From positions 1 through 38,927 of IMG/VR virus record IMGVR_UViG_3300033416_000018: 38,927 bases of DNA. One strand, written 5' to 3'. Both the position numbers and the translations under genes were made by a program. Position 1 is the stretch's first letter. Each line of letters starts with the position of its first letter. Under the pieces are notes generated by a model. That model had not been told where the DNA came from and did not search any database. It worked only from the letters and a program-made list of their open reading frames with translations. Positions 2 through 34,835 of the stretch are shown in pieces. The stretch comes from a virus (Duplodnaviria; Caudoviricetes).

Positions 2-631
2 CTCGGGCGCCTCATCCCGGCCGAGCACGCGGACTACTACTACGCCTTGGAGATGTTCCTGGAGCACGTCTCCGCCCGCGGGTTGTGCGTGGAGTTCGTG
101 GTGTTCGCGGATATGGGTACGGACCCCCTCCGCACGATGAACGCCGGCCGGCACTACCACGACGTCATGGACGTGCTGACGGGTCGCTCCGGCGTCGTGG
201 CTGAGGTCTGCAATGAACCCTTCGTCAACGGGTTCGAGCCACTGACGGTGTACACGCCGTTCTCTGAACTGGCCCAAGCCCTCGGGCACTACAACGTGGA
301 TGCCCCGACCGCCTCGCTTCCGAAGGCGCAGTATCTCACTCAGCACGGCCAGCGCGACATCGAATGGCCCCGCCGGGCCAAAGACTTACTGGAACTGTCA
401 AGGTTGGGCTACGCCGACGATCCGAACCCCGCGCATCCGCCCTTCCTGCCGCTGAACGTGCCGGCGGTCGGCGACGAGCCGATGGGCATTGGTGTCGATC
501 AACCCGGCCGGCGCTCCATGAACAAGACAGACCACGCGGCATATCATGCCCTCGCGATGCTACTCGCCTCGGGGTCGACCATTCACGGGGACTTTGGGCT
601 GGAGACACGGCTGCCGCGGCCCGACGAGTAG
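2..631 (+). CDS. 5'-truncated glycoside hydrolase-like (clan GH-A/GH5-like TIM barrel) protein, possible endolysin; ends at an in-frame TAG
   Basis: Frame is open from base 2 (LGRLIPAEHADYYYALEMF...); EVCNEP acid/base-type motif and later DEP motif; lies directly upstream of holin-like genes. Confidence 0.5.
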   Translation, partial: LGRLIPAEHADYYYALEMFLEHVSARGLCVEFVVFADMGTDPLRTMNAGRHYHDVMDVLTGRSGVVAEVCNEPFVNGFEPLTVYTPFSELAQALGHYNVDAPTASLPKAQYLTQHGQRDIEWPRRAKDLLELSRLGYADDPNPAHPPFLPLNVPAVGDEPMGIGVDQPGRRSMNKTDHAAYHALAMLLASGSTIHGDFGLETRLPRPDE

Positions 632-12719: not shown

Positions 12720-13051
12720 ACGTCCCCCTCTAGCCGCTTCAGCGCGGCGCGCAGGTCCCCGTGGACCCGGGCCAGGATGTTGTCTGCCTGCTGTCGGGCC
12801 TTCCCGACGATCTCCGCGGAGCGCTTCTCGGCGAGCGCCTTCGTCTCCGCGGCCTGCTGCGCAGTGGCCTGCTGTATACGCTCGGCCTCCCGGTATGCTT
12901 CCCACGGGAGCATCGGCGCCGGATAGTAGTCCGACCGGATGCAGTCGGCCAGTTCATGCCGCACGCTGGCAAGCCAGGGGCCGAGATATGAGTCCCGGCC
13001 CAGCTTGCCGATCGCCTCGTCGACGATCGCCAGTTCTGCTGCTTTGGTCAT
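12716..13051 (-). CDS. Coiled-coil protein (DivIVA/ATPase-b-like repeats)
   Basis: A..EA..I...A heptads; GGAGGAG RBS. Confidence 0.65.
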   Translation of the reverse strand: MTKAAELAIVDEAIGKLGRDSYLGPWLASVRHELADCIRSDYYPAPMLPWEAYREAERIQQATAQQAAETKALAEKRSAEIVGKARQQADNILARVHGDLRAALKRLEGDV

Positions 13052-13053
13052 GG

Positions 13054-13263
13054 TTAGCTTCTCCTCCGCTTCCGGCCGTCATACGGCTGGTCGATCAACC
13101 GGGGCTGGCGCCGCGTCTTCGCTGGGCTCGGCCGCTTTTCGTCATCCAGCCACCACGGCCGATCCGCGTCGGCGTCCGTCAGCGTTTCGTCAGCGTCCAG
13201 AACCACGAAGATCCGGCGCGTGGCGTCCTCTTTCTTGTCGTCGTCTCTTTCTTTCCCCGACAT
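13054..13263 (-). CDS. First gene of leftward operon, charged hypothetical protein
   Basis: GGAGG RBS, directly behind consensus promoter. Confidence 0.55.
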   Translation of the reverse strand: MSGKERDDDKKEDATRRIFVVLDADETLTDADADRPWWLDDEKRPSPAKTRRQPRLIDQPYDGRKRRRS

Positions 13264-13281
13264 CAGACACCTCCGCCACAC

Positions 13282-13310
13282 AATATATGCTCGCGCCGCG
13301 AGAATGTCAA
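13282..13310 (-). promoter_or_regulatory. Strong sigma70-type promoter for leftward operon
   Basis: Minus strand TTGACA-17bp-TATATT. Confidence 0.8.
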
Positions 13311-13318
13311 CCCCCCCC

Positions 13319-13348
13319 TTGACCGACCCTCCCGACGGGGCGCATACT
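13319..13348 (+). promoter_or_regulatory. Sigma70-type promoter for terS, probably leaderless
   Basis: TTGACC-18bp-CATACT, 8 nt before ATG 13357, no Shine-Dalgarno. Confidence 0.6.
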
Positions 13349-13356
13349 TCCGCCTG

Positions 13357-14175
13357 ATGGAAACGCCGAAAACTGAAGCGGCCCCAATTCCAACATACGG
13401 AACGACGATAGAAAACCCTGCCATCCCTCCGCCGCGGAACAAGGGCGGCCGGCCGAAGGGCTCGAAGGATAAGACGAAGCGCGCCTCCCCGAACCGCCGC
13501 GCGTCTTTCCGTGAGATGTACGACAACGAGGTGCAGAAGAACGCGCCCCGCATCATCCGCGCCGCCATTCGCCAGGCTACCCGCGGCGACTCTCGCGCCC
13601 TCGTCGACGTCTTGAACCGCGTCCTGGGTCCGCCGAGTCAGCGCCTGGAAGTCACCGGCCCGGGCGGTGCGCCCCTCGCCCTCCAGGCCGCCGCCCCGGT
13701 CGCGCTCGCGCTGATGAGTACCGAGGAACTCCGCGCCCTGCTTGGCCTTCAGCGTCGTCTCGGCCTGCCCGATGTCCAGGTCCAGGCGGTGCGCGATCTC
13801 ATCGAGGCGAGGCCGTCAGACCCCGCCGCGGGCGCCCTCGAGCCGGCCGCCGAACCGGGCCAGATAGAACCCCTCTCTACTTCCTCTCTCCTCGACTCCA
13901 CCTCTCTCCCTCTCCCCGTCCATCCCGACCCCCTCGACCCCGACCAGGACGACCCCTCCGGCCTCCGGCCGGCGACCCCGAACCCCGAACCCGACACCCC
14001 AGCCGGCGACCAGGTGAGCGACGAGGGAGGCGACGAGGGACCCGCGCGCGCCTCCAACCTGCCCGGGCCGGCCGGCGGCGGCCAGGTCGAGGGCGTCGAC
14101 CCTGAACCCGTCCAGGTCGAGGGCGACTCAGGCCCGAATCTAAGCGCGTCATACTCAGATGAGCCCCTTCCATAA
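13357..14175 (+). CDS. terS: Terminase small subunit-like protein with long acidic Pro-rich tail
   Basis: GGRPKGSKDK motif, A..GD..A....L.R.LG.P.Q.LEVTG.GG.PL motif; position upstream of terL. Confidence 0.65.
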   Translation: METPKTEAAPIPTYGTTIENPAIPPPRNKGGRPKGSKDKTKRASPNRRASFREMYDNEVQKNAPRIIRAAIRQATRGDSRALVDVLNRVLGPPSQRLEVTGPGGAPLALQAAAPVALALMSTEELRALLGLQRRLGLPDVQVQAVRDLIEARPSDPAAGALEPAAEPGQIEPLSTSSLLDSTSLPLPVHPDPLDPDQDDPSGLRPATPNPEPDTPAGDQVSDEGGDEGPARASNLPGPAGGGQVEGVDPEPVQVEGDSGPNLSASYSDEPLP

Positions 14176-14241
14176 TCTCTCATCGTCGCGCTTCGTGTCG
14201 CTAAGTCCTGCGCTATCAGTGAGTAGCAAGGAACTAGGCGA

Positions 14242-14269
14242 AGGTAACACAACATACATTATCAGACTG
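14242..14269 (-). other. dif-like XerC/XerD recombination site
   Basis: Minus strand CAGTCTGATAA-TGTATG-TTGTGTTACCT versus E. coli dif GGTGCGCATAA-TGTATA-TTATGTTAAAT; 11-6-11 layout, AT-rich island in non-coding DNA. Confidence 0.7.
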
Positions 14270-14642
14270 CGACCGATAGAGTCGGACATGGCAGGACGCC
14301 GGCCGTCGGCCTCCAGGCGCCCGCTCGCGCGGCGGGGGAGGGGCTGGGGCTGGCGACGAAGCCACTACCCCTCTACCTTCCTCCCCCGCTATTGGCCCTC
14401 TTGGCGTCGTCCCTTTGTCTGTTTTTCGGGGGCGGTTTGTGGACGGGTGGGCTGTCAGGGTGGGGGTGAGGGAGTGGGTTCATGTGGGTGGTGCGGGGTG
14501 GACTTTCGCCTTGTTTATACATTTTCTGCATAGTGGGTTTTCATTGGGAAGTTTATCGATCTTGTACGGGCGGGTACCGGCGTGAAGGCGTGCGAGGGGG
14601 GCGAAAGTCGTGCATAACCCCGGGTCCTTCTAGTGGTGAGGG

Positions 14643-14837
14643 GTGAGTATGGCGTCATCCAAGCTGGTCTATGACGGGGAGTGGGTGCGAGTTCGGAACA
14701 TGATGAACAAGCGGTTTACCGCGTCAGATCCGCGGTGCGAGTGGTGTCTCCGGCTCACCTGTGACGTGGTGTGGCTGAGTATCAAGACGCATCGTGTGCG
14801 CTGTCGGCGGTGTTTCACGCCGAAGCAGGCCAAGTGA
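14643..14837 (+). CDS. Small zinc-finger protein coupled to the terminase nuclease gene
   Basis: CEWC...CRRC; TGATG overlap at 14835-14839. Confidence 0.55.
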   Translation: MSMASSKLVYDGEWVRVRNMMNKRFTASDPRCEWCLRLTCDVVWLSIKTHRVRCRRCFTPKQAK

Positions 14838-15598
14838 TGGACGCGGCTCTTTCCCGCTACACGGTGATGGCGTCGTGGGACGACTGCCCGCATTTGGATG
14901 CGGAGGCGAAGGCGGAGTTGCTGGCGGAGTATCCGCTGTTTCAGCGGGAGGCGCGGTCGAAGGGGATTCCGGCCCTTGGAAGCGGGACGATCTACCCGGT
15001 GCCGGAGGGGGAGATCCGGTGTGCGCCGTTCTCGATACCGGAGCATTGGCCTCGGTGCTTCGGGCTGGACACGGATGCGGGGGCGGGGTGGACGGCGTGT
15101 GTCTGGTTGGCCTGGGACCGGGAGGCGAACGTCGGGTATGTGTATGACTGCTTCAAGCGGAGCCACGCGGAACCGGCGGTGACGATCGAGGCGGTCAGGG
15201 CGCGGGGGGTGTGGATTCCTGGGGTGGCGGATGCGGCGGGGTTGGCGGTGACGCAGCACGACTCGGAGCAGGTGATTGCGATCTTGCGGCAGGGGGGCCT
15301 GGACGTCTCGTTGCCCGACAAGGCGGTGGAGGCGGGGATCCAGACGGTCTGGGAGTTGATGTCGGGGGGCCGGTTGCGGGTGTTCTCGAACTGCGCGCCG
15401 TGGTTCGACGAGGTGCGGTTGTACCGGAGAGATGACAGGGGTCGGGTGGTGAAGAAGGACGACCATCTGATGGACGCAACGCGGTATGCGGTACGGAGTG
15501 GCCGGGAGCGGATGCGGACGAAGCCGGGGATGCCGAAGACGACGGCGGAGCAGACGATCTACGACCCGCGGACAGCGGGGGTGCGGTGGATGCAGTAA
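14837..15598 (+). CDS. terL: Terminase large subunit, C-terminal part (ATPase lid plus RNase H-like nuclease)
   Basis: SWDDCPHL..E.K..L..YP..REAR.KGIP.LGSG.IYP, GLD, VE.GI......M..GRL.VF..C..WF.E.RLY.RD..G..VK..D...DA.RY align by eye with the P22 gp2 C-terminal half. Confidence 0.9.
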   Translation: MDAALSRYTVMASWDDCPHLDAEAKAELLAEYPLFQREARSKGIPALGSGTIYPVPEGEIRCAPFSIPEHWPRCFGLDTDAGAGWTACVWLAWDREANVGYVYDCFKRSHAEPAVTIEAVRARGVWIPGVADAAGLAVTQHDSEQVIAILRQGGLDVSLPDKAVEAGIQTVWELMSGGRLRVFSNCAPWFDEVRLYRRDDRGRVVKKDDHLMDATRYAVRSGRERMRTKPGMPKTTAEQTIYDPRTAGVRWMQ

Positions 15599-15611
15599 GA
15601 AGGAGGGTGTG

Positions 15612-15701
15612 ATGAAGGGGAAGGGCGCGAAGTCGGAGAAGGGCGAGTCGAAGAAGCACGAGCGGGCGGAGAAGGGCAAGGGCGGGAAGGCGGGGTGCTG
15701 A
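15612..15701 (+). CDS. 29-aa Lys/Gly-rich peptide
   Basis: AAGGAGG RBS; MKGKGAKSEKGESKKHERAEKGKGGKAGC. Confidence 0.55.
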   Translation: MKGKGAKSEKGESKKHERAEKGKGGKAGC

Positions 15702-15704
15702 GCG

Positions 15705-15875
15705 ATGGACGATGCCTTTCGTGAATTGTGCCGCCGGCTCGGGTGGGGCGTGGAGCCTCGTGGGACGTGGCCGCCGACGGGGACGCGGTACGTCTGGACG
15801 GCATCAGATGATGCCATGTTCGCCTGGGAGTACGACGTCTGGCTGGCGAGTGGCGGGCCGGAGCGGTCGGCGTGA
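15705..15875 (+). CDS. 56-aa Trp-rich hypothetical protein
   Basis: MDDAFRELCRRLGWGVEP...; fills the gap and overlaps the terminase ATPase start (GTGA). Confidence 0.5.
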   Translation: MDDAFRELCRRLGWGVEPRGTWPPTGTRYVWTASDDAMFAWEYDVWLASGGPERSA

Positions 15876-16636
15876 GCGACGTCTTCATCGCGTCGGACGA
15901 GGCCATCCTCGCGGAGTTGAAAGAACGGGAGTCGTGTCCGTGGTACACGTATTACCCGGATGAGGGACCGCTGCGGCGGGAGTTGTACCCGAAGCATCTG
16001 GCGTTCTTTGCCGCGGGGGCGGAGTGGCGGCAGCGGCTATTCTTGGCCGGGAACCGCGTCGGGAAGTCCAAGGTCGCGGCGTATGAACTCGTCTGCCACA
16101 TGACGGGGAAGTATCCGGCCTGGTGGAAGGGGCGCCGCTTCCCAGAGCCGATCGAGGCGTGGGCGGCGGGCGACACCGGGAACACGACGCGGGACATCAT
16201 TCAGACGGCGTTGCTGGGGCCGGTGCAGACGGTCGACTCACGGAACTGGTGCGGGATGGTGCCCCGGAAACTCGTCTACGACATCACGCGGAAGCAGGGG
16301 ATCCCGTCGGCGGTGCATTCGATCTTCGTGCGGCACGTCTCGGGAGGCGTGTCATCCCTGGATCTGAAGTCCTATGACCAGAAGCGGGAAGCGTTCCAAG
16401 GGACGGAAAAGCAAGTCGTCTGGGCCGACGAGGAGCCGCCGGCCGACATCTACGGTGAGATGCTGATGCGGACGATGACCTCGGATGGGCTCCTGATGGT
16501 GACAATGACGCCGTTGATGGGGCTTACGCCGTTCCTGGCCGAGTGGCTGGAGCGGAGCGTGCTGGAGGTGCTCGGGCCGGATGGGACGAGCGAACTCACG
16601 GGGGCCAAATCGGCCGTGTTCGGCCAGCGGGTCTAG
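15872..16636 (+). CDS. terL: Terminase large subunit, N-terminal ATPase part
   Basis: Walker A AGNRVGKS, H.TG.YP.WW.G.RF, KSYDQ.R..FQG, Walker B VVWADEEPP, coupling motif TMTPLMG as in the P22 gp2 N-terminal half. Confidence 0.92.
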   Translation: MSDVFIASDEAILAELKERESCPWYTYYPDEGPLRRELYPKHLAFFAAGAEWRQRLFLAGNRVGKSKVAAYELVCHMTGKYPAWWKGRRFPEPIEAWAAGDTGNTTRDIIQTALLGPVQTVDSRNWCGMVPRKLVYDITRKQGIPSAVHSIFVRHVSGGVSSLDLKSYDQKREAFQGTEKQVVWADEEPPADIYGEMLMRTMTSDGLLMVTMTPLMGLTPFLAEWLERSVLEVLGPDGTSELTGAKSAVFGQRV

Positions 16637-16638
16637 CG

Positions 16639-16833
16639 ATGCTCATTGCCCTGATGGACGAGGCGCGGCGCGTCCGACTCTGTGAGGTGGAGGACGACAT
16701 CGAGGCCCGGTTCATCCTGGTCCGTGAGGGCTTCGAGTACTTCTTCGAGCGTCGTGAGGACCAACCGGACGGGATGCGGACGTACTACCTCGTGGATGCG
16801 GAGAAGGTCGATGGGCTGGGCAGCACGTTGTAG
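16639..16833 (+). CDS. Hypothetical protein
   Basis: ATG 2 nt after terL stop; typical codon usage. Confidence 0.55.
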   Translation: MLIALMDEARRVRLCEVEDDIEARFILVREGFEYFFERREDQPDGMRTYYLVDAEKVDGLGSTL

Positions 16834-17002
16834 AGTCGGGCTGTGGGAGCGGACACAGCAGGAGTACCGCCGCCGTCGACTCGCCCACAACCTCTTGCCG
16901 AGGCTCATCCTCTGGCAGTTCATGCACTTGATCGTGGCGATCGTGACATTACCGTGGCGACTCATCACTGGAGGACGGAGGAGACATGCCCAAGAAATAT
17001 GA
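16811..17002 (+). CDS. Small membrane-associated hypothetical protein
   Basis: Hydrophobic LILWQFMHLIVAIVTLPW; fills the operon gap. Confidence 0.4.
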   Translation: MGWAARCRVGLWERTQQEYRRRRLAHNLLPRLILWQFMHLIVAIVTLPWRLITGGRRRHAQEI

Positions 17003-17138
17003 GGCGATCCGAGACAAGCTGGCAAAGGGTGCGAAGGTCGACAGCCCCGCCTACAACCGGGCGCAGTCGCGGGCTGCGGCTATCTACAATGCCACGCGCA
17101 AGCCAGGGCAGAAGCCTGTGACGGGGAAGCACTCGTGA
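16986..17138 (+). CDS. 50-aa basic protein
   Basis: GGAGGAG RBS; MPKKYEAIRDKLAKG...AAAIYNATRK; GTGA overlap with next gene. Confidence 0.6.
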   Translation: MPKKYEAIRDKLAKGAKVDSPAYNRAQSRAAAIYNATRKPGQKPVTGKHS

Positions 17139-17383
17139 CGACCCCGCGCCGATCGCGGAACCAGATCATCGAAGCCGTCAAGCAGGCCCGGGCCGACGGC
17201 GTCCAGGATCCTCTCGTAAGCCTCATGGACGTCGTGACGCTGACCCAGTTCCACGAGCGGACGCTGCGCCGGTACGTCGAGGAGGCCACTTTGCCAGTGG
17301 AGCGTCTCGGACCGACGCGCCGGATCTACTTCCGCTGGTCCGTGGTCAGGAAGAACTGGCCCGAGGACACGCAACGTATCTGA
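17135..17383 (+). CDS. Excisionase/MerR-like winged HTH DNA-binding protein
   Basis: LVSLMDVVTLTQFHERTLRRYVEEATLPVERLG..RRI pattern of HTH_17 family. Confidence 0.7.
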   Translation: MTTPRRSRNQIIEAVKQARADGVQDPLVSLMDVVTLTQFHERTLRRYVEEATLPVERLGPTRRIYFRWSVVRKNWPEDTQRI

Positions 17384-17514
17384 CAGCCCCTGCTAAACCA
17401 TGACATGCTGTGGCTCAATAGCCACAAACTGTTGCGGGTTAGCCACACCGAAGCGCATTGTACCGCCGAACGTGGTGTCATCACGGCGCACTCGCCGTGT
17501 GTCACGGAGGCGGT

Positions 17515-17622
17515 ATGAAGAAGCTCGGGGACACGGGGAAGACACGCGAACCGAAACCGTCTGGGCTCGCCGGCGCCAAGTCCGTCTCGGCGACCAAGCC
17601 CGAGGGCGGCAAGAAGAAGTAG
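17515..17622 (+). CDS. 35-aa Lys-rich peptide upstream of portal
   Basis: GGAGG RBS; MKKLGDTGKTREPKPSGLAGAKSVSATKPEGGKKK. Confidence 0.5.
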   Translation: MKKLGDTGKTREPKPSGLAGAKSVSATKPEGGKKK

Positions 17623-17628
17623 GCCGGG

Positions 17629-20160
17629 ATGGCAACCCGGCCACCGTCGCACCCCGCCCTCGACGGGGAGCCGCCGATCTCCCAACCTGGTGCCTCTAGT
17701 GCCAGCGTAGAAGGCCGAGCCGGCTTCAAGACCGAGTCTCCGACCCCACCCAGTCCCAACCCCAACAGCGACGGCGACACTCGCGTCTCACAGAAAGCGG
17801 CCGATTTCGTCGCGTTAGCGATGAAACGGTGGCAGACGATCGATGCCGCCGAGTCTGAACTTCGTGGGGACCAGCGGGAAGACCTGGAGTTCTTCGCCTC
17901 GGACCAGTGGCCGAAGGACATCAAGGACCAACGGGACCGTGACGGGCGTCCCTGCCTCACCGTGAACCGTCTTCCCGGGTTCGTCAGGCAGTTGACGAAT
18001 GAGATGCGGGACGCGAGACCAGGGATCGAGGTCATTCCGGTCGATAACTTCTCGGATCCGGCCAAGGCAGAGGTCAGACAGGGCCTGATTCAGCACATTG
18101 AGGCCAATTCTGACGCGGATGTGGCCTACACCCGGGCGACAGAGGCCCAAGTACGGACCGGCCGAGGGTTCTTCCGCATCGTTCCCGAGTACGCCAGTGA
18201 CACCGGATTCGAGCAGGAACTGCGGATCAAGTCGATTCGGAACCCCAACACCGTCTATTTCGACCACGCGAGTCAAGAACTTGACGGTTCGGACGCTCGG
18301 TACGCCTTCATCGTCGACGATCTGCCGATTCCCGAGTATGACGAGCGGTTTGGGGAGGCGTCGCGGCTCAGTCTGACCCAATTTGCCCGAAGTGGTGAGA
18401 CCACTTCCGACTGGATGCCGGAAGGCAAGGTCCGGGTCGCCGAATACTACTGTTTCGTGCCCAAAACGCGCACGATCCATCAGTTACGGAACGGCTGGGT
18501 CGTCAACGACGCCGATCTGAAGAAGATGACGGCAGAATACGAGGAAGAACGCCAGATCAACCCCGAAGTGCCGCAGTTGGACCTGATACCCGTGCGTTCC
18601 CGTGAGGTGGAAGGCCGGCAGTTGACGTGGGCACTCATCAACGGGGCCACGATCCTCGACGGAAACGACGAAAAGACGGCTGGGCGCGAACTTCCGGGGC
18701 TCTGGATCCCGATCATCCCCGTCTATGGCGAGGAGATCGACCTGGATGGCAAGGTCGACTACCGCGGACTAGTCCGAGACGCCAAAGACGCGCAGCGGAT
18801 GACCAATTTCTGGCGATCCGCCGAGACGGAGACCGTCGCGCTGGCCCCGAAAGCACCCCATGTGGCCGAAGTGGGCCAGATCGAGGGCTTCGAGGAAGAC
18901 TGGCGCACAGCCAACATCCGCAACCACTCCGTTCTGAAGTACCGTGCCAAGGCGCTTGACGGGCATTTGCTTCCTCCGCCTCAGCGGAATACGGCCGAAC
19001 CGCCGATCCAGGCGATGTCCATGCTGGCGCTCCAGATGGAGAACGATCTACGGGCGACCGTGGGCTTCTCTTACGACGTTGGGAGCCAAGAGAAGCGCGT
19101 GGAACAGTCTGGACGGGCGATTCTGGCTCGCCAGGCGCAGGGGGAGAAGGGGAACTCGCACTTCTCGGCGCATCTCGCCATTTCGTTGCGTCATGCCGGC
19201 CGGATTCTGCTCGATCTGCTCCCGTATTACTACGACACGCCGCGGGTGAAGCGGATCCTCGGTCGCGATGGGCAGTCGAAGCAAGTCATCGTCCATGCTG
19301 GGAACCCGCAAGAGGCGATGACCGTCGCGACTCAGCAGGCAATGGGCGAGGCGAGCATCCACGACCTCTCCGCCGGCCGGTATGACGTGCGCGTGAAGGC
19401 GGGCGTCAGTTACGCCTCGCAGCGTCAGCAGGACCAGGAACTCGTCGCGAACGCCCTCCAGACGAACCCGGCCCTGTTCCAGATCATCGGCGATCTGTTC
19501 TTCAAGACGTTGGACTCGCCGATCGCGGAACGCATCAGCCAGCGACTTGCTAAGGCGCTTCCGCCCGAACTGAAGGACCCCGAGGAAGGACAACCACCGC
19601 CGATTCCGCCACAGGTCCAGATGCAGATTCAGCAGATGGACAAGCTCATCCAGGCCCTGACACAGCGCCTGAATGAGATGACCGAAGAACAGAAAGCCAA
19701 GCGCGAAGAACTTGCCTCGAAGGAACGCATTGCCGAGATCGAGGCGAAGACGCAAATGGCGATCGAACAAGCCAAGATTGCTGCCGATCAGGCCACTCTC
19801 CAGATCCAGCTTGAGTCCCAGGCTCGACAGGCTGACCGCAAGATCGCTGCCGATAGCGCGAATACAGAGCGCAAGGTGGCGAGCGCGGAGGCCCAAGCCG
19901 ATGCCGATCGTGGCGCGGAGCAGGCGATTGCCTTGCTCAACGCCCGCATCAAGCAGATCGAGCAGATGGTGGCGATCGACATGGCGCGGTTGCAGGCCGC
20001 ACAACAGACTCCGACGGCTTCCGCCGGGAGCCCGGCTTCACCGACGCCGCCTGTGGCCGCGCCTCGTTCCCCTGATGTGACGCTTCCGCCGATGCCGGCG
20101 CCCTCTGCCACATCCCCGACTCCGACCCTCACACCGGCTGAGAACCCCGCCGGGACATAG
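17629..20160 (+). CDS. P22-like portal protein
   Basis: D..F...DQW......R....RPCLT.N.L, G.GF.RI, IP.YG......GK....GLVR.AKD.Q...N, SG.AI.ARQ.QG, G.YDV.V..G.SY.SQRQ, long C-terminal coiled-coil barrel. Confidence 0.93.
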   Translation: MATRPPSHPALDGEPPISQPGASSASVEGRAGFKTESPTPPSPNPNSDGDTRVSQKAADFVALAMKRWQTIDAAESELRGDQREDLEFFASDQWPKDIKDQRDRDGRPCLTVNRLPGFVRQLTNEMRDARPGIEVIPVDNFSDPAKAEVRQGLIQHIEANSDADVAYTRATEAQVRTGRGFFRIVPEYASDTGFEQELRIKSIRNPNTVYFDHASQELDGSDARYAFIVDDLPIPEYDERFGEASRLSLTQFARSGETTSDWMPEGKVRVAEYYCFVPKTRTIHQLRNGWVVNDADLKKMTAEYEEERQINPEVPQLDLIPVRSREVEGRQLTWALINGATILDGNDEKTAGRELPGLWIPIIPVYGEEIDLDGKVDYRGLVRDAKDAQRMTNFWRSAETETVALAPKAPHVAEVGQIEGFEEDWRTANIRNHSVLKYRAKALDGHLLPPPQRNTAEPPIQAMSMLALQMENDLRATVGFSYDVGSQEKRVEQSGRAILARQAQGEKGNSHFSAHLAISLRHAGRILLDLLPYYYDTPRVKRILGRDGQSKQVIVHAGNPQEAMTVATQQAMGEASIHDLSAGRYDVRVKAGVSYASQRQQDQELVANALQTNPALFQIIGDLFFKTLDSPIAERISQRLAKALPPELKDPEEGQPPPIPPQVQMQIQQMDKLIQALTQRLNEMTEEQKAKREELASKERIAEIEAKTQMAIEQAKIAADQATLQIQLESQARQADRKIAADSANTERKVASAEAQADADRGAEQAIALLNARIKQIEQMVAIDMARLQAAQQTPTASAGSPASPTPPVAAPRSPDVTLPPMPAPSATSPTPTLTPAENPAGT

Positions 20161-20190
20161 CGCGGAGGCGACCCGCGCAGGAGTAGATCG

Positions 20191-21210
20191 ATGGCAATTA
20201 CGTTGATGACCACGACTGGCTCGCTTCCCGACGTGCAGGCTGCGCTCGGCATTGCCGCAGGCTCAGCCCCCGCACCGGATGTCGATCCAGGACCGATCGC
20301 GGCGTCTGTGGAGGCGCTTCCGAAAGCCGAACCGGCTACGGAGCCTTCCGAGACACCCGAAGCGCCCCCTGTGGAGACGGCGCCACAGGATGCGACCCCG
20401 CAGGCCGCCGAACCCGAGGTGCCAGACTCGGAGTTTGACGAGGACGGCGAACCGCTGACTGAGCGGGCCGCCCGATCTTCGAGGACGAAGCTCCAGACCA
20501 TCAAGAAGCTCCGCGCGCGTGCCAGACATGCTGAAACAGAACTGGCGCGACGCGAGGGCGAATTGGCGGCCTTGCGAGCGTTACAGACTCCGTCGACGAC
20601 CGCCGCGGAACCCGTGCAGACCGGAATGGACTCGTCCGAACCCAAGGAAGCCGACTACGCCACGTATGAGGCGTGGATCGAAGCCCGTGCCGACTACCGC
20701 GCCCGTCAAGCCGTCCGCGAGGAACTCCAGCAGCGGCAGACACAGGATGCGGAAACGCGGCAGCGGGAGAGCCTGGCCGAACGGATCCGTGCCTTCGAGA
20801 AGGATCACCCGGACTATCAGGAACTCGTGTCGAACCCCGAGTTGCAGTTGACGCGCGCCATCGCCGAGACACTGACCGTGAGCGAAGACGGTCCTGCTCT
20901 CGCGTACGCTCTCGCCAAGGACGTGCCTCGCTTCAAGCGGATCGCGTCGTTGCCGCCCGTGCTCGCCATTCGCGCACTCGGGGAACTCAGTGCTGAACTG
21001 CGGTTAGGGGCTCAGCCCAAGGTGGCTGAAGCCGCGCCGCCTCCGAAAGTACCCGCCGCGCCTCCCCCGCCGACACCCGTGCGAGGGGGCTCGGTTGCCG
21101 CCTCCGTCTCACTGGAAGACTTTGCGAAGACCATTCAGCCTGGAGATCCCAAGACCTCCGAGTGGATCCGTCGTCGCAACGAACAGTTGAGGCGCGCAGG
21201 CCAGAGATAA
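20191..21210 (+). CDS. Capsid scaffolding protein
   Basis: Between portal and coat; acidic N-terminus, P...DY..YE.W..A.ADY, PDY.E, GP.L.Y.L, PPP..PV. Confidence 0.8.
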   Translation: MAITLMTTTGSLPDVQAALGIAAGSAPAPDVDPGPIAASVEALPKAEPATEPSETPEAPPVETAPQDATPQAAEPEVPDSEFDEDGEPLTERAARSSRTKLQTIKKLRARARHAETELARREGELAALRALQTPSTTAAEPVQTGMDSSEPKEADYATYEAWIEARADYRARQAVREELQQRQTQDAETRQRESLAERIRAFEKDHPDYQELVSNPELQLTRAIAETLTVSEDGPALAYALAKDVPRFKRIASLPPVLAIRALGELSAELRLGAQPKVAEAAPPPKVPAAPPPPTPVRGGSVAASVSLEDFAKTIQPGDPKTSEWIRRRNEQLRRAGQR

Positions 21211-21216
21211 CAGACC

Positions 21217-22455
21217 ATGAACTCGCTGCTCACCATTGAGATGATCACCCTCGAAGCCTTGAGGGTGCTCACCAACATGCTGACGTTCACGGGCCTCGTG
21301 AACCGCCAGTTCGACTCGATGTTCGGGAAGTCCGGCGCGAAGGTTGGGGATGTCGTGTACGCCCGCAAGCCGCCGCGCTACATCGTCCGCGTGGGTTCTG
21401 GCATTCAGCCCCAGGCGACGGTCGAGACCCGCACGCCGGTCAAGCTCGATAAGCTCGTCGGCATCGATCTGCCGTTCAGTTCCGTGGAGCGCACGCTGTC
21501 GCTGGACAATTACTCCGACCGTGTGCTGAAGCCGGCGCTGGCGGCCATCGGCAACCAGATCGACTATGACGGGCTCCAGTTGTACAAGGAGGTCTACAAC
21601 CTCGTTGGCACGCCTGGCACGGTGCCGGCCACGACGGACGCGAATACCACGTATCTTGGCGCTGGCGTCAAACTCGATGACATGGGCGCCCCGCAGGATG
21701 ATCAGCGGTATCTCGTCGTCACGCCGAACATGCAGGCATCGGCTGTCGCCGCGAACTTCTCGCTATTCAACCCGTCAGCGACCATCAGCGAAGGCTTCCG
21801 CAAGGGCCGGTTCGGTCGGTCAGTCCTCGGGTTTGACTGGTTCATGGACCAGAACTGCCCGACCCACACGGAAGGGACGAGAACGGGCACGAATGGCACG
21901 ACCTGGACTGTCAGTGGCGCCAGTCAGACCGGAAGCTCCCTGCTCATCACGGGTCTGACGTCAGGGAATACTGTCAAGAAGGGCGACGTCTTCACGATCG
22001 GAACGATTGCCGATGCGACGGGCGTTCAGAGCGTGAACCCGCAGTCAAGGCAGGCCACTGGCACGTTGCAGCAGTTTGTCGTGACGGCGGACTTCACTTC
22101 GGACGGTGGCACGGACACAATCTCGATCGACCCGCCCATCACGCCGTCGGGACAGTTCCAGACGGTGGATCGCTCGCCGGCCAGTGGTGCGGTGCTCACG
22201 TTCTCCTCGTCCTCGGCTCGGGTGTATCGTTCCGGGCTGGCGTTCCATCGTGACGCCTTCACGCTGGTCACGGCGCCGCTGGAACTCCCGAAGGGCGTTC
22301 ACGAGTCGTACTACGCTGGGGACGACCAGACGGGCGTCGGCGTGCGCGTCGTGACGGCCTACGACATCCGCACGAACGAGATGATCACCCGCTTCGACGT
22401 GCTCTACGGTTGGGCCGCGCTTCGGCCCGAGTTGGCGTGCCGCATCGCCTCGTAA
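21217..22455 (+). CDS. Major capsid protein (P22 coat protein family)
   Basis: NSLLT..MIT.EAL.VL.N, GAK.GD....RKP, L.LD.YS.R.LKPA...IGN..D, LAFHRDAFTL....L.LP, RFDVLYG....RPELACRI. Confidence 0.93.
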   Translation: MNSLLTIEMITLEALRVLTNMLTFTGLVNRQFDSMFGKSGAKVGDVVYARKPPRYIVRVGSGIQPQATVETRTPVKLDKLVGIDLPFSSVERTLSLDNYSDRVLKPALAAIGNQIDYDGLQLYKEVYNLVGTPGTVPATTDANTTYLGAGVKLDDMGAPQDDQRYLVVTPNMQASAVAANFSLFNPSATISEGFRKGRFGRSVLGFDWFMDQNCPTHTEGTRTGTNGTTWTVSGASQTGSSLLITGLTSGNTVKKGDVFTIGTIADATGVQSVNPQSRQATGTLQQFVVTADFTSDGGTDTISIDPPITPSGQFQTVDRSPASGAVLTFSSSSARVYRSGLAFHRDAFTLVTAPLELPKGVHESYYAGDDQTGVGVRVVTAYDIRTNEMITRFDVLYGWAALRPELACRIAS

Positions 22456-29415: not shown

Positions 29416-30288
29416 ATGATTCCTGGGCGGACGTCCATCATCATTCCGGCGCGGCAGGAGCCCTATCTCCGCCCGACGGTGGAGGACTGCCTCCGCCAAG
29501 CTCGGGGTGACGTGGAAGTCGTCGTCGTGCTGGACGGATGGTGGCCCGAACCCACCTTGCCCGAGGATCCGCGAATTGCCGTTCTGCACTGGGGAACGGC
29601 TCAAGGGCTGCGGCAGTCGATCAACGCCGGCATGGCGATGGCGACCGGCGAGTACGTGATGAAACTCGACGCCCATTGCGCCGTCGGCGAAGGCTTCGAC
29701 GTGACCCTCAAGGCGTCGTGCGGGGAGCAGGACATCGTCGTGCCGGAGAAGTACTCCCTCATTCCCGAGACGTGGGAGCGGTGCAAACATCCGTGGCAGT
29801 ACTTCTACCTCTCGTGGCCGTGGGAGGAGAACGGGCTGACGTGGGGCCTGCACGAGAAGAACTACGGCCCGAGCGTCAACTATGCCAGACGACGGATCCC
29901 CGTCGACGACATCCTGACCTTCCAGGGGTCGGCATGGCTTCTCCGGCGCACCTACTGGGATCGCATCGGGCCGATGAACGTTGAGCGATACTACTTCGCC
30001 CACGAAGCCGTCGAACTCGGGATGCGGGCGTGGCTCGGTGGGGGCCGGTGTCGCATCGTCAAGGCGGCCTGGTATGCCCACTTGTACAAGGGCAAGGCGC
30101 ATCGGCGTGGGTTCAGCCGGCACAAGCAACGGTGGAACGCGGCCATCGCCGAGTCGACCATCTACTGGATGACCGACCAGTGGCCCGAGCGGGTCCATGA
30201 CTTCGCGTGGCTCGTTGACAAGTTTGGTCCCCTCCCGGGATGGCCGGAGAACTGGCAGGCCGAGTTCCTTGAGCGGAGGGCGGCATGA
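29416..30288 (+). CDS. Glycosyltransferase family 2
   Basis: SIIIPAR.E, VVVVLDG, G.R..IN.G..A.GEY.MKLDAHC (DxH), FQGS.W. Confidence 0.88.
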   Translation: MIPGRTSIIIPARQEPYLRPTVEDCLRQARGDVEVVVVLDGWWPEPTLPEDPRIAVLHWGTAQGLRQSINAGMAMATGEYVMKLDAHCAVGEGFDVTLKASCGEQDIVVPEKYSLIPETWERCKHPWQYFYLSWPWEENGLTWGLHEKNYGPSVNYARRRIPVDDILTFQGSAWLLRRTYWDRIGPMNVERYYFAHEAVELGMRAWLGGGRCRIVKAAWYAHLYKGKAHRRGFSRHKQRWNAAIAESTIYWMTDQWPERVHDFAWLVDKFGPLPGWPENWQAEFLERRAA

Positions 30289-30920
30289 CGCTCGTCGAGG
30301 CCCTCACGAAGCGGTACGGGACGCTCCCAACGGGACCGCCCTATCCCGTGGAGGTGCCTGGCGCCAGTCGTCTGCATCTCGCATCAGTCTTCTCGGATAT
30401 GGGGTTCACGAAAGGGGCGGAGATTGGCGTGTGGGCAGGGGAGTACTCAGAGTATCTCTGTCAGGGAATGCCTGGTCTGGACTTGACATGCGTCGACCCG
30501 TGGGTCGCCTATCAGGACTACTCGGACCATCGGAACCGCGCGCATATCGCGCAGACGCACGCGGAGGCGATGGCTCGGCTCGCACCGTATCGCTGTCGCA
30601 TCATCCGGGCGTTCAGCGTGGACGCCGCCCCGCAAGTGCCAGACGGGTCTCTGGACTTCTGCTATATCGACGCGAACCACGGCTTCGAGTATGTCGTGGC
30701 GGATCTCGCCGCGTGGTTGCCGAAAGTGCGGTCTGGCGGGGTCATCTGCGGGCATGACTACAAAATGATCGCGGCGCGTCCAGACCTTCAGGTCGTTGAA
30801 GCGGTAGACGGCTGGACGCGGGCCTATCGCGTGGCCCCGTGGTTCGTGCTCGGACGAACCAGAACAAGGCCCAGCGAAGTGCGGGACAAGCATCGGTCCT
30901 GGTTGTGGGAGAAGCCATGA
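30285..30920 (+). CDS. Class I SAM-dependent methyltransferase (Methyltransf_24-like)
   Basis: GAEIGVW.G, VDPW, SLDF.YIDANH..EYV..D...W.PKV..GG..CGHDY. Confidence 0.88.
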   Translation: MTLVEALTKRYGTLPTGPPYPVEVPGASRLHLASVFSDMGFTKGAEIGVWAGEYSEYLCQGMPGLDLTCVDPWVAYQDYSDHRNRAHIAQTHAEAMARLAPYRCRIIRAFSVDAAPQVPDGSLDFCYIDANHGFEYVVADLAAWLPKVRSGGVICGHDYKMIAARPDLQVVEAVDGWTRAYRVAPWFVLGRTRTRPSEVRDKHRSWLWEKP

Positions 30921-31699
30921 TCATCGACTGCTTCTCCTTCTTCAACGAACTGGACATCCTGGAGTTACGACTCCGAGAGCTTGATGGTGTCGTGTCCTAT
31001 TTCATCGCCGTGCAAGGCGAGGAGACCCATGCCGGCGACCTCAAGCCGATGTATCTGAATCTGGAAGATGACCGCTGGGCTCCGTGGAGAAGCCGACTAC
31101 GTTCCGTGACCGTGCCAAGGATTGAGACATCGGATCGGTGGATTCGCGAAAAGGCGATGCGCCACGTCAAGAAAAATGCGCTCGCGTTCTATCAGGATGA
31201 CGACGTGGTCATTCTGTCTTGCGTGGACGAGATCCCAGATGTGCGATTGCTTCCTGACCTCGTGCCAAGTCTGACGCTTGATGCCTGGGTTGGCTTCGAT
31301 CCGGCCTGCTATTACTACTATCTCAACCTCAGAACGCCGCGGTCACTTCCTGGCATTCAGTTCGCTCGTATCGACACCGTCCGAAAGTACGGGGCCGATG
31401 CTTTGGAGGCCCGATTCAGAACGCCTCCGATCGGCCCCATCAAGGGCGGCTGGCATTTCAGTTACATGGGAGGCGTGGAGGCAATTCGGACGAAGTTTGC
31501 ATCGTTCGCCCATGCCGAGTACGACACCGAGCATCACCGGAACGCGGAATGGCTAGAGTCACGCATCGCGCAGCGGCTCAACCCATTTGGGCGCAAAGAA
31601 GAACCCTTCAGCGTCGTGTCAATCAAGGAACTTCCCGAGGAAGTACAGCGACATCCTGAGCGTTATGCCCACATGCTGCTCGCCGAGGTGACGGTATGA
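30917..31699 (+). CDS. Glycosyltransferase family 17 (beta-1,4-GlcNAc transferase-like)
   Basis: IIDCF.FFNELD.LELRL.EL, TH.G..KP, DD....S.VDEIP, GGWHFSY.G....I..K..SF.H.E. Confidence 0.85.
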   Translation: MIIDCFSFFNELDILELRLRELDGVVSYFIAVQGEETHAGDLKPMYLNLEDDRWAPWRSRLRSVTVPRIETSDRWIREKAMRHVKKNALAFYQDDDVVILSCVDEIPDVRLLPDLVPSLTLDAWVGFDPACYYYYLNLRTPRSLPGIQFARIDTVRKYGADALEARFRTPPIGPIKGGWHFSYMGGVEAIRTKFASFAHAEYDTEHHRNAEWLESRIAQRLNPFGRKEEPFSVVSIKELPEEVQRHPERYAHMLLAEVTV

Positions 31700-32760
31700 G
31701 CTATACCGACTCTCGGCACAAGGTATTCGGGCACCTCGAAAGGATAGCCCTATGGCAGCACGGACAGAAGCCTGCCCCGGTAACGGTGGAATGGGACCTC
31801 TCCAATCGTTGTCCGCTGGGCTGTCCAGACTGCCATTTCGCGCATTTGCGGACGCGAGGCCCACTCACAACCGGCCCGTCGGTCCTGTACGAGCCGTGTG
31901 GAGACCTGGCCGATGAAGTAGTCGTTCGTCGGGGCCTTCTGGAGATGGCTACCGCAGGGGTACAAGGCGTGGTGTGGAGTGGTGGAGGCGAGCCACTAAC
32001 CCATCCGCACTGGTGGCAGATTGTGGACTACGCACATAGTCTTGGACTCCATCAGGGCATGTACACGTCTGGAGTAGTTCTGACGCCAGAATCCTCACTC
32101 TGGCTCGCCGAACGGTTGGCATGGGTAGTCATCTCACTTGACGCGATTGACGCCGACACCTACGCGACTGACAAGCAGTGCAGTCCAGGCATCTTCGATC
32201 TGGTCTGCCGGAACATCGAGAATCTCGCGTCTCTCGGCCAGATCGTGGTCAGCGTGTCCTTCCTCTTGCGCGAAGCCAACTGGCAACGTGCGCCAGAAAT
32301 GGCCGCGCTCGCTGAGCGCCTGAAGGCCACGTATACGACCTTCCGGCCGGCCATCGTAGTGGACCCAGAAGACCCCGCTACGTGCCTTGAAGATCGCCGC
32401 TGGATTACCAAAGCCGTGCCGATGTTACGTGACCTTGCCAAGAGTCCCGACGTGGAACTAGACGTAGCTCGCTTCGAGGCATATCAAGCCTGGACGGGCC
32501 GGGCATACGACGCCTGCTATGGCATTCGGTTCTCCACGGTTATCACCCCAGATGGACGAGTATGGGAGTGCTGTCAGCGTCGAGGAATGCGAGATTCCTG
32601 CATTGGAGATTTGCGAGTCACGTCGTTCCCGATGATCTGGGAAACACATCCTGGACTCCGTACCGACTTTTCATCCTGTCGGGTCATGTGCCGATTGCAC
32701 CTGATGAATGAAAGCCTCGCAATGGTCTACGCGGATCGGCCGCATGGAGCGTTCTTGTGA
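31696..32760 (+). CDS. Radical SAM/SPASM-domain protein
   Basis: CPLGCPDC, SGGGEP..HP, ISLDA, C......I.PDG.V..CC...IGDL SPASM/twitch motif. Confidence 0.9.
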   Translation: MSYTDSRHKVFGHLERIALWQHGQKPAPVTVEWDLSNRCPLGCPDCHFAHLRTRGPLTTGPSVLYEPCGDLADEVVVRRGLLEMATAGVQGVVWSGGGEPLTHPHWWQIVDYAHSLGLHQGMYTSGVVLTPESSLWLAERLAWVVISLDAIDADTYATDKQCSPGIFDLVCRNIENLASLGQIVVSVSFLLREANWQRAPEMAALAERLKATYTTFRPAIVVDPEDPATCLEDRRWITKAVPMLRDLAKSPDVELDVARFEAYQAWTGRAYDACYGIRFSTVITPDGRVWECCQRRGMRDSCIGDLRVTSFPMIWETHPGLRTDFSSCRVMCRLHLMNESLAMVYADRPHGAFL

Positions 32761-33356
32761 CTGATCTAGCCGCGACACTAGACCGCCTGGATACTCCGCC
32801 ACCGTGGCCGATCAAGGTCGACGCCGGCCGACAGGACCTCGCGGTCTATTTCGCAGAGAAGGGCTACACGACTGGGGTAGAAATCGGCACGCTTCGTGGC
32901 GAGTATGCGAAGACACTCTGCCGTGTCAATCCTCGCCTCCGACTCATTGCAGTGGATCCCTGGATTCCATACGAGGGATACCACGACCAACTCCAGAAAA
33001 CGATGCAGCGGCTCCCCGACATCTACGAGGAAGCGCAGGCCAGACTGGAGCCATATCACTGCACGCTCTGGAGAAAAACCTCAGCCGAAGCCGCGCCTGA
33101 TATTCCAGACGGCTCGCTTGATTTCGTTTTCATCGACGGCAATCATGCCTTTGACTACGTCATGCAGGACCTGACGCTCTGGATGCCGAAGGTCAAGCCT
33201 GGTGGCATCCTCTCAGGGCATGACTACCATCGGTTCACGCGACCGCCCTACCGACATATTCAGGTCATCGAGGCCGTCAACGCCTTCGTTGCACAGCATG
33301 AAATCGGGCCGTGGTGGATCTTCGAGGATGGCAGTTACGCCTGGAGGGTCCTCTGA
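32757..33356 (+). CDS. Class I SAM-dependent methyltransferase (second paralog)
   Basis: GVEIGT..G, VDPW, SLDFVFIDGNH, KVKPGG..SGHDY. Confidence 0.88.
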   Translation: MTDLAATLDRLDTPPPWPIKVDAGRQDLAVYFAEKGYTTGVEIGTLRGEYAKTLCRVNPRLRLIAVDPWIPYEGYHDQLQKTMQRLPDIYEEAQARLEPYHCTLWRKTSAEAAPDIPDGSLDFVFIDGNHAFDYVMQDLTLWMPKVKPGGILSGHDYHRFTRPPYRHIQVIEAVNAFVAQHEIGPWWIFEDGSYAWRVL

Positions 33357-34012
33357 TGCGCGTGTTCGTGCATACGGCAAACTTGGGCGGCTTCGATGCC
33401 GTGCGAACGCCAGTGAGACAGGTGGACGTGGAGATCACCTATCGGATCTTCACGGATACCGAGTTCCCGCCGAGGCCACGCGCCATGACCCGTCGCCTTC
33501 AGGCGCGGATTCCGAAGATGTTTGGCTGGGACTTGGAGCCTGGGTACGATGCGTACTTCTGGCATGATGCGTCCCTGCAACTCTCGAAGCCCGACAGCGT
33601 AGCCTGGTTTCTCGACCAGATGAACGGGCACGACATCGTCGTCTTCGCCCATCCGGTTCGCAAGAGCGCCAAGGAAGAAGCGGACTTTCTTAGAGTCAAA
33701 CTCGCCAAGGGTAGCAAGTACATCTGTTCCCGCTATGAAGGTGAGGACCTTGATGGTCAGATGAAGGCTATCAACCACGGATGGTTCTCGGACGACAAGC
33801 TCTATGCCAGCGGTGCATTCATCTATCGTCCGACGATTCGGATGCAGGCCGCGATGCGGTTGTGGTGGGAGCATACCAGTCGATTCCATTGCATCGACCA
33901 GTTAGCCTTTCCGTATGTCCTGGATGCCTGCCGTACAACGGTAAAGGTTCTGGACCAGGACATCTACCATGCCAGTCATCTGCTCTGGACGAGGCAGCAC
34001 CGTCATGGGTAG
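33356..34012 (+). CDS. DUF616/TOD1-MUCI70-type glycosyltransferase-like protein
   Basis: V.TA..GG.D, FTD, AR.PK, W.DAS, HP.R....EE, DQL.FPYV. Confidence 0.75.
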   Translation: MRVFVHTANLGGFDAVRTPVRQVDVEITYRIFTDTEFPPRPRAMTRRLQARIPKMFGWDLEPGYDAYFWHDASLQLSKPDSVAWFLDQMNGHDIVVFAHPVRKSAKEEADFLRVKLAKGSKYICSRYEGEDLDGQMKAINHGWFSDDKLYASGAFIYRPTIRMQAAMRLWWEHTSRFHCIDQLAFPYVLDACRTTVKVLDQDIYHASHLLWTRQHRHG

Positions 34013-34835
34013 GCGCATCTCGTTCTTCTATCGGCGGCATCAACTCTCTGGCGAAATCCGGCGCCAGGTGGCCGACGTGATTGGAGCCCGAGTCAATCCG
34101 TCTAGCGATACGGAACAGGACATCTGCATCGGCGTGAAGATGTCGCCCTATCTCGTCTACCACGACAAACTCATTGACCCGTCTAGGATGGGGGACTTCT
34201 ACCTCGATTTCATCGACCATCACACCTCGATTGACTGGTTGGCTCGCTGGCCCGAGATCAAACTGATTGTCTGTTCGAGGTCGGGTGAACGCTATCTTCG
34301 CGAGCATCTCAAGAATCCACTCCGTTTCATCCCGCAGCATCACTGCAATGTGGAACGGCATCGTCGTCCGCACCGTCCAATGAAGACCGTCGTGTTCGTT
34401 GGGGTCCTCACTGAGCGTCCGCCCTGGTACGACTGGGTGAACCGAGCGATGGCGAACATGGGACTGACCATGCGCTGGGTGACGGACTTCAGGACTCGGA
34501 AGGACGTGGTCGACGCCTATCTTGACGCGGACCTCCAGTTCTACTGGCGCGAGGGGATGCCGGAGAAGCTCCGTCACCTGAAGAACCCGATGCGGATTAT
34601 CAGCGCCGCCAGTTTCGGGATTCCGACGGTCGTCAACCAGGAGCCCTGCTACGCCGCTGAGTGCGACAGCCACTATCTCGGGTTCGAGAAGATCGGCGAC
34701 GCGCTCGATGCCGTGCGCGAACTTCAGCATGACCCATCGAAGTACGCCGCACTGGCGGAACCTGGGCCAATCTGGACGGAACCCTACCATCTCGACCACG
34801 TCGCCGAAGCGTTCAGGAGGCTCGCCGATGAGTAG
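34005..34835 (+). CDS. GT-B fold (GT4-like) glycosyltransferase
   Basis: SGEIR..Q.A, IPQHHCN, Y..AD, KNP.RI..A.SFGIPTV. Confidence 0.7.
   Translation: MGRRISFFYRRHQLSGEIRRQVADVIGARVNPSSDTEQDICIGVKMSPYLVYHDKLIDPSRMGDFYLDFIDHHTSIDWLARWPEIKLIVCSRSGERYLREHLKNPLRFIPQHHCNVERHRRPHRPMKTVVFVGVLTERPPWYDWVNRAMANMGLTMRWVTDFRTRKDVVDAYLDADLQFYWREGMPEKLRHLKNPMRIISAASFGIPTVVNQEPCYAAECDSHYLGFEKIGDALDAVRELQHDPSKYAALAEPGPIWTEPYHLDHVAEAFRRLADE

Follow-up and report, generated by a model that had tools for sequence, protein, structure and literature searches.

A P22-type large terminase encoded as two intact genes in reversed order in an uncultured phage

In an uncultured phage, a P22-type large terminase (TerL) is encoded as two intact genes in reversed order, the gene for the nuclease half lying upstream of the one encoding the ATPase half. 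The large terminase has been described as the universal one-chain ATPase-nuclease of tailed phages (PMC7824862, in the available part of that text); in the window, which here means the whole 38,927-nucleotide stretch of DNA analyzed, ATPase and nuclease are divided between two genes of reversed order instead of following one another from N to C on one polypeptide. It is considered quite likely that the two separate proteins reassemble non-covalently into one motor subunit, without any splicing.

The Two Terminase Genes

The first gene, for the C-chain (14837..15598, plus strand, 253 aa), encodes the last ATPase strand (residues ~7-12), the lid helices (~14-45), a linker and then an RNase H nuclease. 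The second, for the N-chain (15872..16636, plus strand, 254 aa), encodes the ASCE ATPase core minus its last strand and most of its lid, with Walker A (GNRVGKS, 60-66), Walker B (WADEE, 184-188) and the coupling motif TMT (211-213), and finishes in a conserved hairpin-helix tail (residues 226-251). Both starts are coupled to preceding genes: that of the C-chain overlaps the stop of the ORF at 14649-14837 (TGATG), and that of the N-chain overlaps the stop of the ORF at 15705-15875 (GTGA). The free ends of the chains read ...SAVFGQRV for the N-chain and MDAALSRY... for the C-chain. A sequence-only reading of this DNA had described two genes with the nuclease half upstream, coupled starts and two small ORFs between the halves; all of these are present, and both terminase ORFs are intact.

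The P22 gp2-type identity put forward in that reading was confirmed by Pfam and by alignment. The N-chain gene matches Terminase_6N positions 1-152, and the C-chain gene matches Terminase_6N positions 167-212 (below the cut-off) together with Terminase_6C. In the comparison with P22 gp2, the N-chain was aligned to residues 40-245 (34% identity, E 2e-37) and the C-chain to residues 245-484 (34%, E 6e-39); both halves abut at P22 residue ~245, and therefore no P22 segment has been lost at the junction. The catalytic motifs, said to look intact, contain residues that are invariant in the chains compared: N61, G64, D186, E187, E188, T211, T213 and P214 among 110 N-chains, and D78, D209 and D213, which by the P22 and RNase H folds we take to be the catalytic acidic residues, among 98 C-chains. 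The C-chain also matches the P22 nuclease domain (PDB 4DKW, E 6e-25), and a sequence search of the PDB with the N-chain gave no match. The break had been placed inside the ATPase domain and right after TPLMG; the first part of this claim stands, and the second was corrected, since the N-chain extends 37 residues beyond G217 as a helix, a beta-hairpin and a helix.

Genomic Neighborhood

The gene pair sits between a predicted terS and a P22-like portal. The upstream gene (13357..14175, plus strand) encodes a protein with a long Pro/acidic tail that is 44% identical to the product of a gene upstream of terL in the one-chain relative L051; it is probably the small terminase (TerS), a weak assignment drawn from position and from a weak DUF5681 match below the cut-off. 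Downstream, genes for P22-like portal, scaffold and coat proteins occupy 17629..22455 on the plus strand (Pfam P22_portal and P22_CoatProtein; PHROG scaffold). Ahead of the portal, the window has a gene for a small basic peptide (16986-17138) and an HTH gene (17135-17383), and a similar-looking run of small genes lies between terL and portal in L051 and L055, both one-chain relatives.

The ORF that precedes the C-chain gene (14649..14837, plus strand) encodes a 62-aa CxxC-containing protein with a weak IBR match below the cut-off, and the gene at this place in the related phage L001 is unrelated to it. Between the two terminase genes lie a 29-aa Lys/Gly-rich ORF (15612..15701, plus strand) with an AGGAGG ribosome site and a 56-aa ORF (15705..15875, plus strand). 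The former has a close homologue in the relative L052 and the latter a weak one in L046 (E 0.007), each in the corresponding place; neither had a Pfam or PHROG match, and no homologues of either were found in one-chain relatives. Small basic peptides encoded after terL in L051 and L055 may be counterparts of these spacer ORFs.

A non-coding element, GGGGCTG..AAGCCACTACCCCT, follows terS at 14343..14372 and is common to the window and L001 (~395-424 in the latter; blastn 80% over 80 nt, E 3e-9). Its 15-nt core occurs only in the window and in L001/L047 among 180 sources, and its fold z-scores (-0.6 to -2.1) were not consistently better than those of shuffled sequences. It is a candidate pac or regulatory site. 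The element lies near the point where the skew turns from C-rich to strongly G-rich (13500-16000). A near-consensus sigma-70 promoter (11/12) was seen on the minus strand at 13282-13348, and a weaker plus-strand sigma-70 promoter stands directly before terS. After the structural genes, 30285-36504 carries a methyltransferase gene, two glycosyltransferase genes and a radical SAM/SPASM gene; DNA like this region was found upstream of terL in L051 and L055.

Permuted Relatives and Selection

A search for related phages with the same gene order returned three (L001, L046 and L052; 79-97% identity), and the order is reversed in all four clade members in which both genes are visible, with spacers that largely differ. 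L001 shows 79-81% protein identity to the window and has an unrelated spacer gene. L046 (81% identity), whose contig holds the first 56 N-chain codons, has an HNH-like gene, identified by eye, between the halves. L052 (~87% DNA identity) is frameshifted and has the 29-aa ORF in common with the window, its remaining spacer genes being different. No further permuted loci came from DNA patterns specific to the clade or from searching viral contigs for the portal.

The ends of both chains are conserved. In length-limited protein searches, 12 N-chain clusters (61-100% identity, the window's own included) stop 43-48 residues past the start of the coupling motif, closing with the tail ...VFG, and 12 C-chain clusters (70-97%) begin 13-16 residues before W14, a few residues ahead of L[ST]RY[TV]VMA. 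Two clusters carry inteins away from the split, P0012 (an N-chain) inside Walker A and P0412 (a C-chain) beside the last nuclease Asp; the longest contig is 7084 bases for each, and an insertion at Walker A is also found in many family representatives.

A check for relaxed selection found both genes under purifying selection instead, with dN/dS of 0.11-0.27: relative to L001 the N-chain has 0.13 and the C-chain 0.11, and relative to L046 the C-chain has 0.27. Within the N-chain gene, conservation is strongest in the tail (0.015-0.04). Among low-depth strain contigs of run X3, the variant codons were synonymous in 13 of 15 cases.

Integrity of the Locus

The possibility of misassembly was examined with contigs from other sequencing runs. 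Contigs of X3, from a second study, cover 14794-14892 and 15634-17177, and a contig of X2 covers 15165-15665, all with 0 differences to the window; together they bridge all four gene ends, no single one spanning both genes. Contig L045 covers both genes (14774-17305, 99.9%) and possibly stems from the same source as the window; runs X1, X4 and X5 gave no useful cover of the locus. An intact terL elsewhere was likewise sought: neither a second copy nor a relic was found in the 38.9-kb record, and no leftover terL half turned up near either gene when a one-chain TerL profile was used to look for relics. The record may be incomplete, by about 8 kb, because no terminal repeat was found in it and the N-chain protein is also present on a 47.5-kb contig.

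This possible incompleteness, and the frameshifts in both halves of L052, would fit an assembly artefact, or decaying pieces rescued by an intact terL elsewhere. Such an origin is nevertheless held to be extremely improbable, given the bridging contigs, the low dN/dS, the placement of the pair between terS and portal, and the occurrence of intact genes in the same order in L001 and L046, which are distinct phages (the N-chain of L046 being visible for its first 56 codons only). The frameshifts in L052 moreover appear to resemble single-base read errors.

Possible Rejoining of the Halves

Since the order is reversed, cis-splicing, frameshifting and readthrough are excluded, and in this the sequence-only reading is upheld. 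Back-splicing, by contrast, would require exon2-exon1 order, which is the order found here. A one-chain TerL could then be made from a circular mRNA, or else by trans-splicing of the RNAs or of the proteins. The idea has some precedent, according to the accessible portions of the sources: terL is spliced in ICP1 (PMC10448857), a split-intein terminase is known (PMC2677866), and TerL is trans-spliced in some alloherpes- and mirusviruses (PMC13595911). In addition, inteins occur elsewhere in both chains of clade members, as noted above. Yet there was no Rfam match in the window at the gathering score, nor within 12900-17800 at E<=1, no intein Pfam match and no intein ends at either terminus, and the flanks and spacers of the window, L001 and L046 have no non-coding DNA in common except the post-terS element. 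Strong protein-level selection acts on the N-chain tail right up to its stop, and both starts are translationally coupled. Rfam searches also found no introns in L001, L005, L006 and 16 further split or half-only loci. Pfam, Rfam and the terminal sequences therefore agree with the earlier remark that neither intein ends nor an intron are visible, and rejoining of the halves is regarded as highly improbable.

Predicted Structure and Assembly

The AlphaFold model of the one-chain relative L055 (mean pLDDT 86.7) resembles the solved terminases of D6E, P22, T4, Sf6 and P74-26. In this model a hairpin and helix (233-252) are followed by a low-confidence loop (~253-270) and a strand (271-276), and the break in the window maps to this loop, the least confident internal one (pLDDT <50 at 255-258). 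Modeled alone, the N-chain is confident (pLDDT 93.6), with a folded tail hairpin. Co-folding of the two window chains gave an ipSAE of 0.85, against 0.02 for the best of three controls; 116 of 157 solved complexes reach the mark applied, as do 2 of 215 mismatched pairs. The runs agreed in at least 59% of contacts, with partner pLDDT of at least 75. In the predicted complex, C-chain residues 7-11 touch tail residues 225-232 and N-chain residues 54-58, which belong to the strand preceding Walker A. The interface comprises C-chain residues 4-14, 16-20 and 39-43 and includes N-chain residues 33-65. The co-fold speaks for compatibility more than for binding, because the halves of a split gene may score this well through their resemblance to solved one-chain terminases.

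According to the reading favored here, the two chains would be translated separately, and the first strand of the C-chain would insert into the ATPase sheet, flanked by the Walker A strand on one side and the N-chain tail on the other. The tail would clamp this pairing, strand complementation would bring back the lid, and the 1:1 pairs would then form a normal ring with TerS on the portal. The proposal of the sequence-only reading, a terminase made of two polypeptides with no splicing, is supported by the conserved ends of the 12 N-chain and 12 C-chain clusters, by purifying selection, by the four permuted phages and by the co-fold.

It had further been suggested that two polypeptides could uncouple cutting from motor stoichiometry. 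The N-chain would then complete itself via its tail and run the motor, with the nuclease chain docking transiently or below 1:1. The confident model of the N-chain alone and the strong conservation of its tail would suit such an arrangement, separate coupled starts could permit unequal expression, and in normal-order relatives the two genes can be 5-6 kb apart. Against it, the tail hairpin is present together with the last strand in L055, the co-fold puts the tail beside the incoming strand and not in its place, and a tail of this kind is missing from most normal-order split N-chains. The TerL lid caps the ATP site, and in P74-26 both hydrolysis and ring contacts depend on the lid residue R235 (PMC5389665); a similar link between lid, ATP hydrolysis and ring contacts is reported for D6E TerL (PMC5727402), both as described in the available sections of these papers. 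The suggestion is not supported, the last strand and most of the lid being on the nuclease chain: uncoupling is unlikely because the lid is tied to hydrolysis and ring contacts, and we rate it as improbable. Because the last strand and most of the lid reside on the C-chain, an ATPase subunit probably requires one nuclease chain to be active, and the best reading is an obligate 1:1 two-chain subunit rather than an uncoupled nuclease.

Wider Family and History

Normal-order splits at this same loop are common in the P22-type family. Both halves were well covered in 128 of 180 sources; one source had no match, and 51 were set aside as having one half only or being partial or frameshifted, L046 and L052 among them. 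After removal of 23 duplicates, 105 sources remained, a set enriched for splits by the pattern searches used: 76 are one-chain, 27 keep the normal order but are split at this loop, and 2 are permuted. Among 80 metagenome loci, which are biased to kin of the query, 59 are one-chain, 7 normal-order split, 4 permuted and 10 nuclease-half only. As for the best 150 representatives at 50% identity, 71 end just past the coupling helix, some of these perhaps being truncated records, and 70 are one-chain. No circularly permuted single chain was found among 120 longer matches or the 150 representatives, and the phages CV-1-33, DES1 and Xfas53 are not split at this site. In the GenBank entry MW202785.1, a large terminase is annotated as two CDSs of that name in normal order, with the break in this loop.

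Of the 27 normal-order splits, 9 have their halves joined by an ATGA or GTGA overlap; in others the halves can be 2-6 kb apart, with unrelated genes between. Such cargo was seen in L020 (2015-3707), L026 (402-6001) and L042 (3748-6001), that of L020 including a GroES-like gene, read by eye. Tandem copies of normal-order split terL, ~4 kb apart, occur in L174 and L175 (Reyranella MAG) and L176 (Enhydrobacter MAG); L018 and L033-L035 also have tandem split copies, and some tandem copies are frameshifted. In L005, a Twister-P5 ribozyme (444-505, minus strand) lies ~3 kb from a normal-order split terL.

A TerL tree was built from 86 rows, 19 redundant rows of the 105 having been dropped. In it, the permuted pair forms a starred group (99) within a starred 8-row clade that holds six one-chain TerLs. 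A 48-row nuclease tree places 13 clade C-chains as a starred group in a 19-row clade with four one-chain proteins, with two more C-chains unresolved beside the group. The 86-row tree requires 14 changes between split and one-chain forms, at least 6 of them forced by starred branches. In AU tests on 47 rows, a single clade for all 23 split rows was rejected (p 8e-102), as was a clade of the permuted pair with the three nearest split rows (p 0.004). These trees place the permuted lineage within one-chain terminases whose linker at the split site is long. The closest one-chain relatives have the same tail, then an acidic/proline linker and then the same strand, with a junction loop of 63-73 residues, and the loop is 33-41 residues in the more distant relatives listed.

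The proposed history starts from one-chain ancestors in which this loop already contained a hairpin and a long linker, disordered in part. The gene would have broken in the linker, the chains would have paired by strand complementation, and gene order would then have become irrelevant; the order terS, C-chain, N-chain, portal could have arisen when one half was relocated, or through a tandem duplication followed by reciprocal loss. At the split site, the one-chain sisters L051 and L055 read ...PEMSRYTVM, which resembles the MS[RK] start of split C-chains and might be the trace of an older split that later re-fused, or an internal start. Given this motif at the junction of two one-chain sisters, the history may also have run from split to one-chain.

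Implications

Reversed order is the cleanest genetic evidence against cis repair of a split that is common in the family, and a two-chain motor probably functions in nature. Such a motor would be a natural dissection: one could add, mutate or titrate the lid and nuclease apart from the ATPase core, making lid-driven force generation, nuclease switching and ring stoichiometry directly testable. TerL-based taxonomy and completeness checks would miss such genes or halve them.

The frequent breakage of the loop may reflect no more than tolerance, with the site serving to hold cargo genes; alternatively, it may be favored by selection as a defense against terminase sensors. The defense protein Upx is predicted to thread beta1, beta4, beta5 and beta6 of the unfolded TerL ATPase, and to activate Upx and EcAvs2 the ATPase domain is sufficient (PMC13601566, available part of the text). 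The strand donated by the C-chain would correspond to beta6. A broader proposal is that P22-type TerLs have repeatedly become two-chain, with strand, lid and nuclease on an exchangeable subunit and gene order freed, perhaps hiding the ATPase from immunity; taken as a whole, this is doubtful. Split TerLs offer a simple test of hiding from Avs and Upx sensors.

Comparison With Known Systems

No description of a splice-free or permuted split TerL was found in the part of the literature covered, namely main texts; the portions available of PMC12210895, PMC7824862, PMC3322345, PMC5135824 and 10.1101/2025.06.11.659172 describe none.

P22 gp2 (NC_002371.2) shares the same motifs, 34% identity in both halves and the same head context of portal, scaffold and coat. 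P22 gp2 is one chain, whereas the window has two genes, reversed and cut before the last ATPase strand and lid, and its N-chain has an extra hairpin-helix tail relative to P22 gp2. Normal-order split P22-type TerLs are cut at the same loop, with a C-chain that begins at the last ATPase strand, but they keep the N-then-C order, often with an ATGA overlap, and by the AU tests they would have an origin independent of the permuted pair.

Other split terminases differ in how the halves are reunited, as far as the sources at hand extend. A T4-like terminase also has terL in two ORFs, but with a split intein at the break (PMC2677866), while none was found at the break in the window; in ICP1, terL likewise occupies two ORFs, but these are RNA-spliced to give one chain (PMC10448857), and no intron was found at the window's break.

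A further likeness is to NrdA of Aeromonas phage Aeh1, an essential phage enzyme in which two chains work without RNA or protein splicing and the terminal tails matter (PMC3045599 and PMC2677866, in their available parts). Both are cases of two intact, selected genes for one enzyme with no splicing elements. In the same partial sources, the halves of Aeh1 NrdA are in normal order with mobE between them, whereas the window has reversed order and no endonuclease gene between the halves; L046, unlike the window, has the HNH gene there. The tails of Aeh1 NrdA stem from the insertion, whereas the tail of the window's N-chain is common to the linker of its one-chain relatives.
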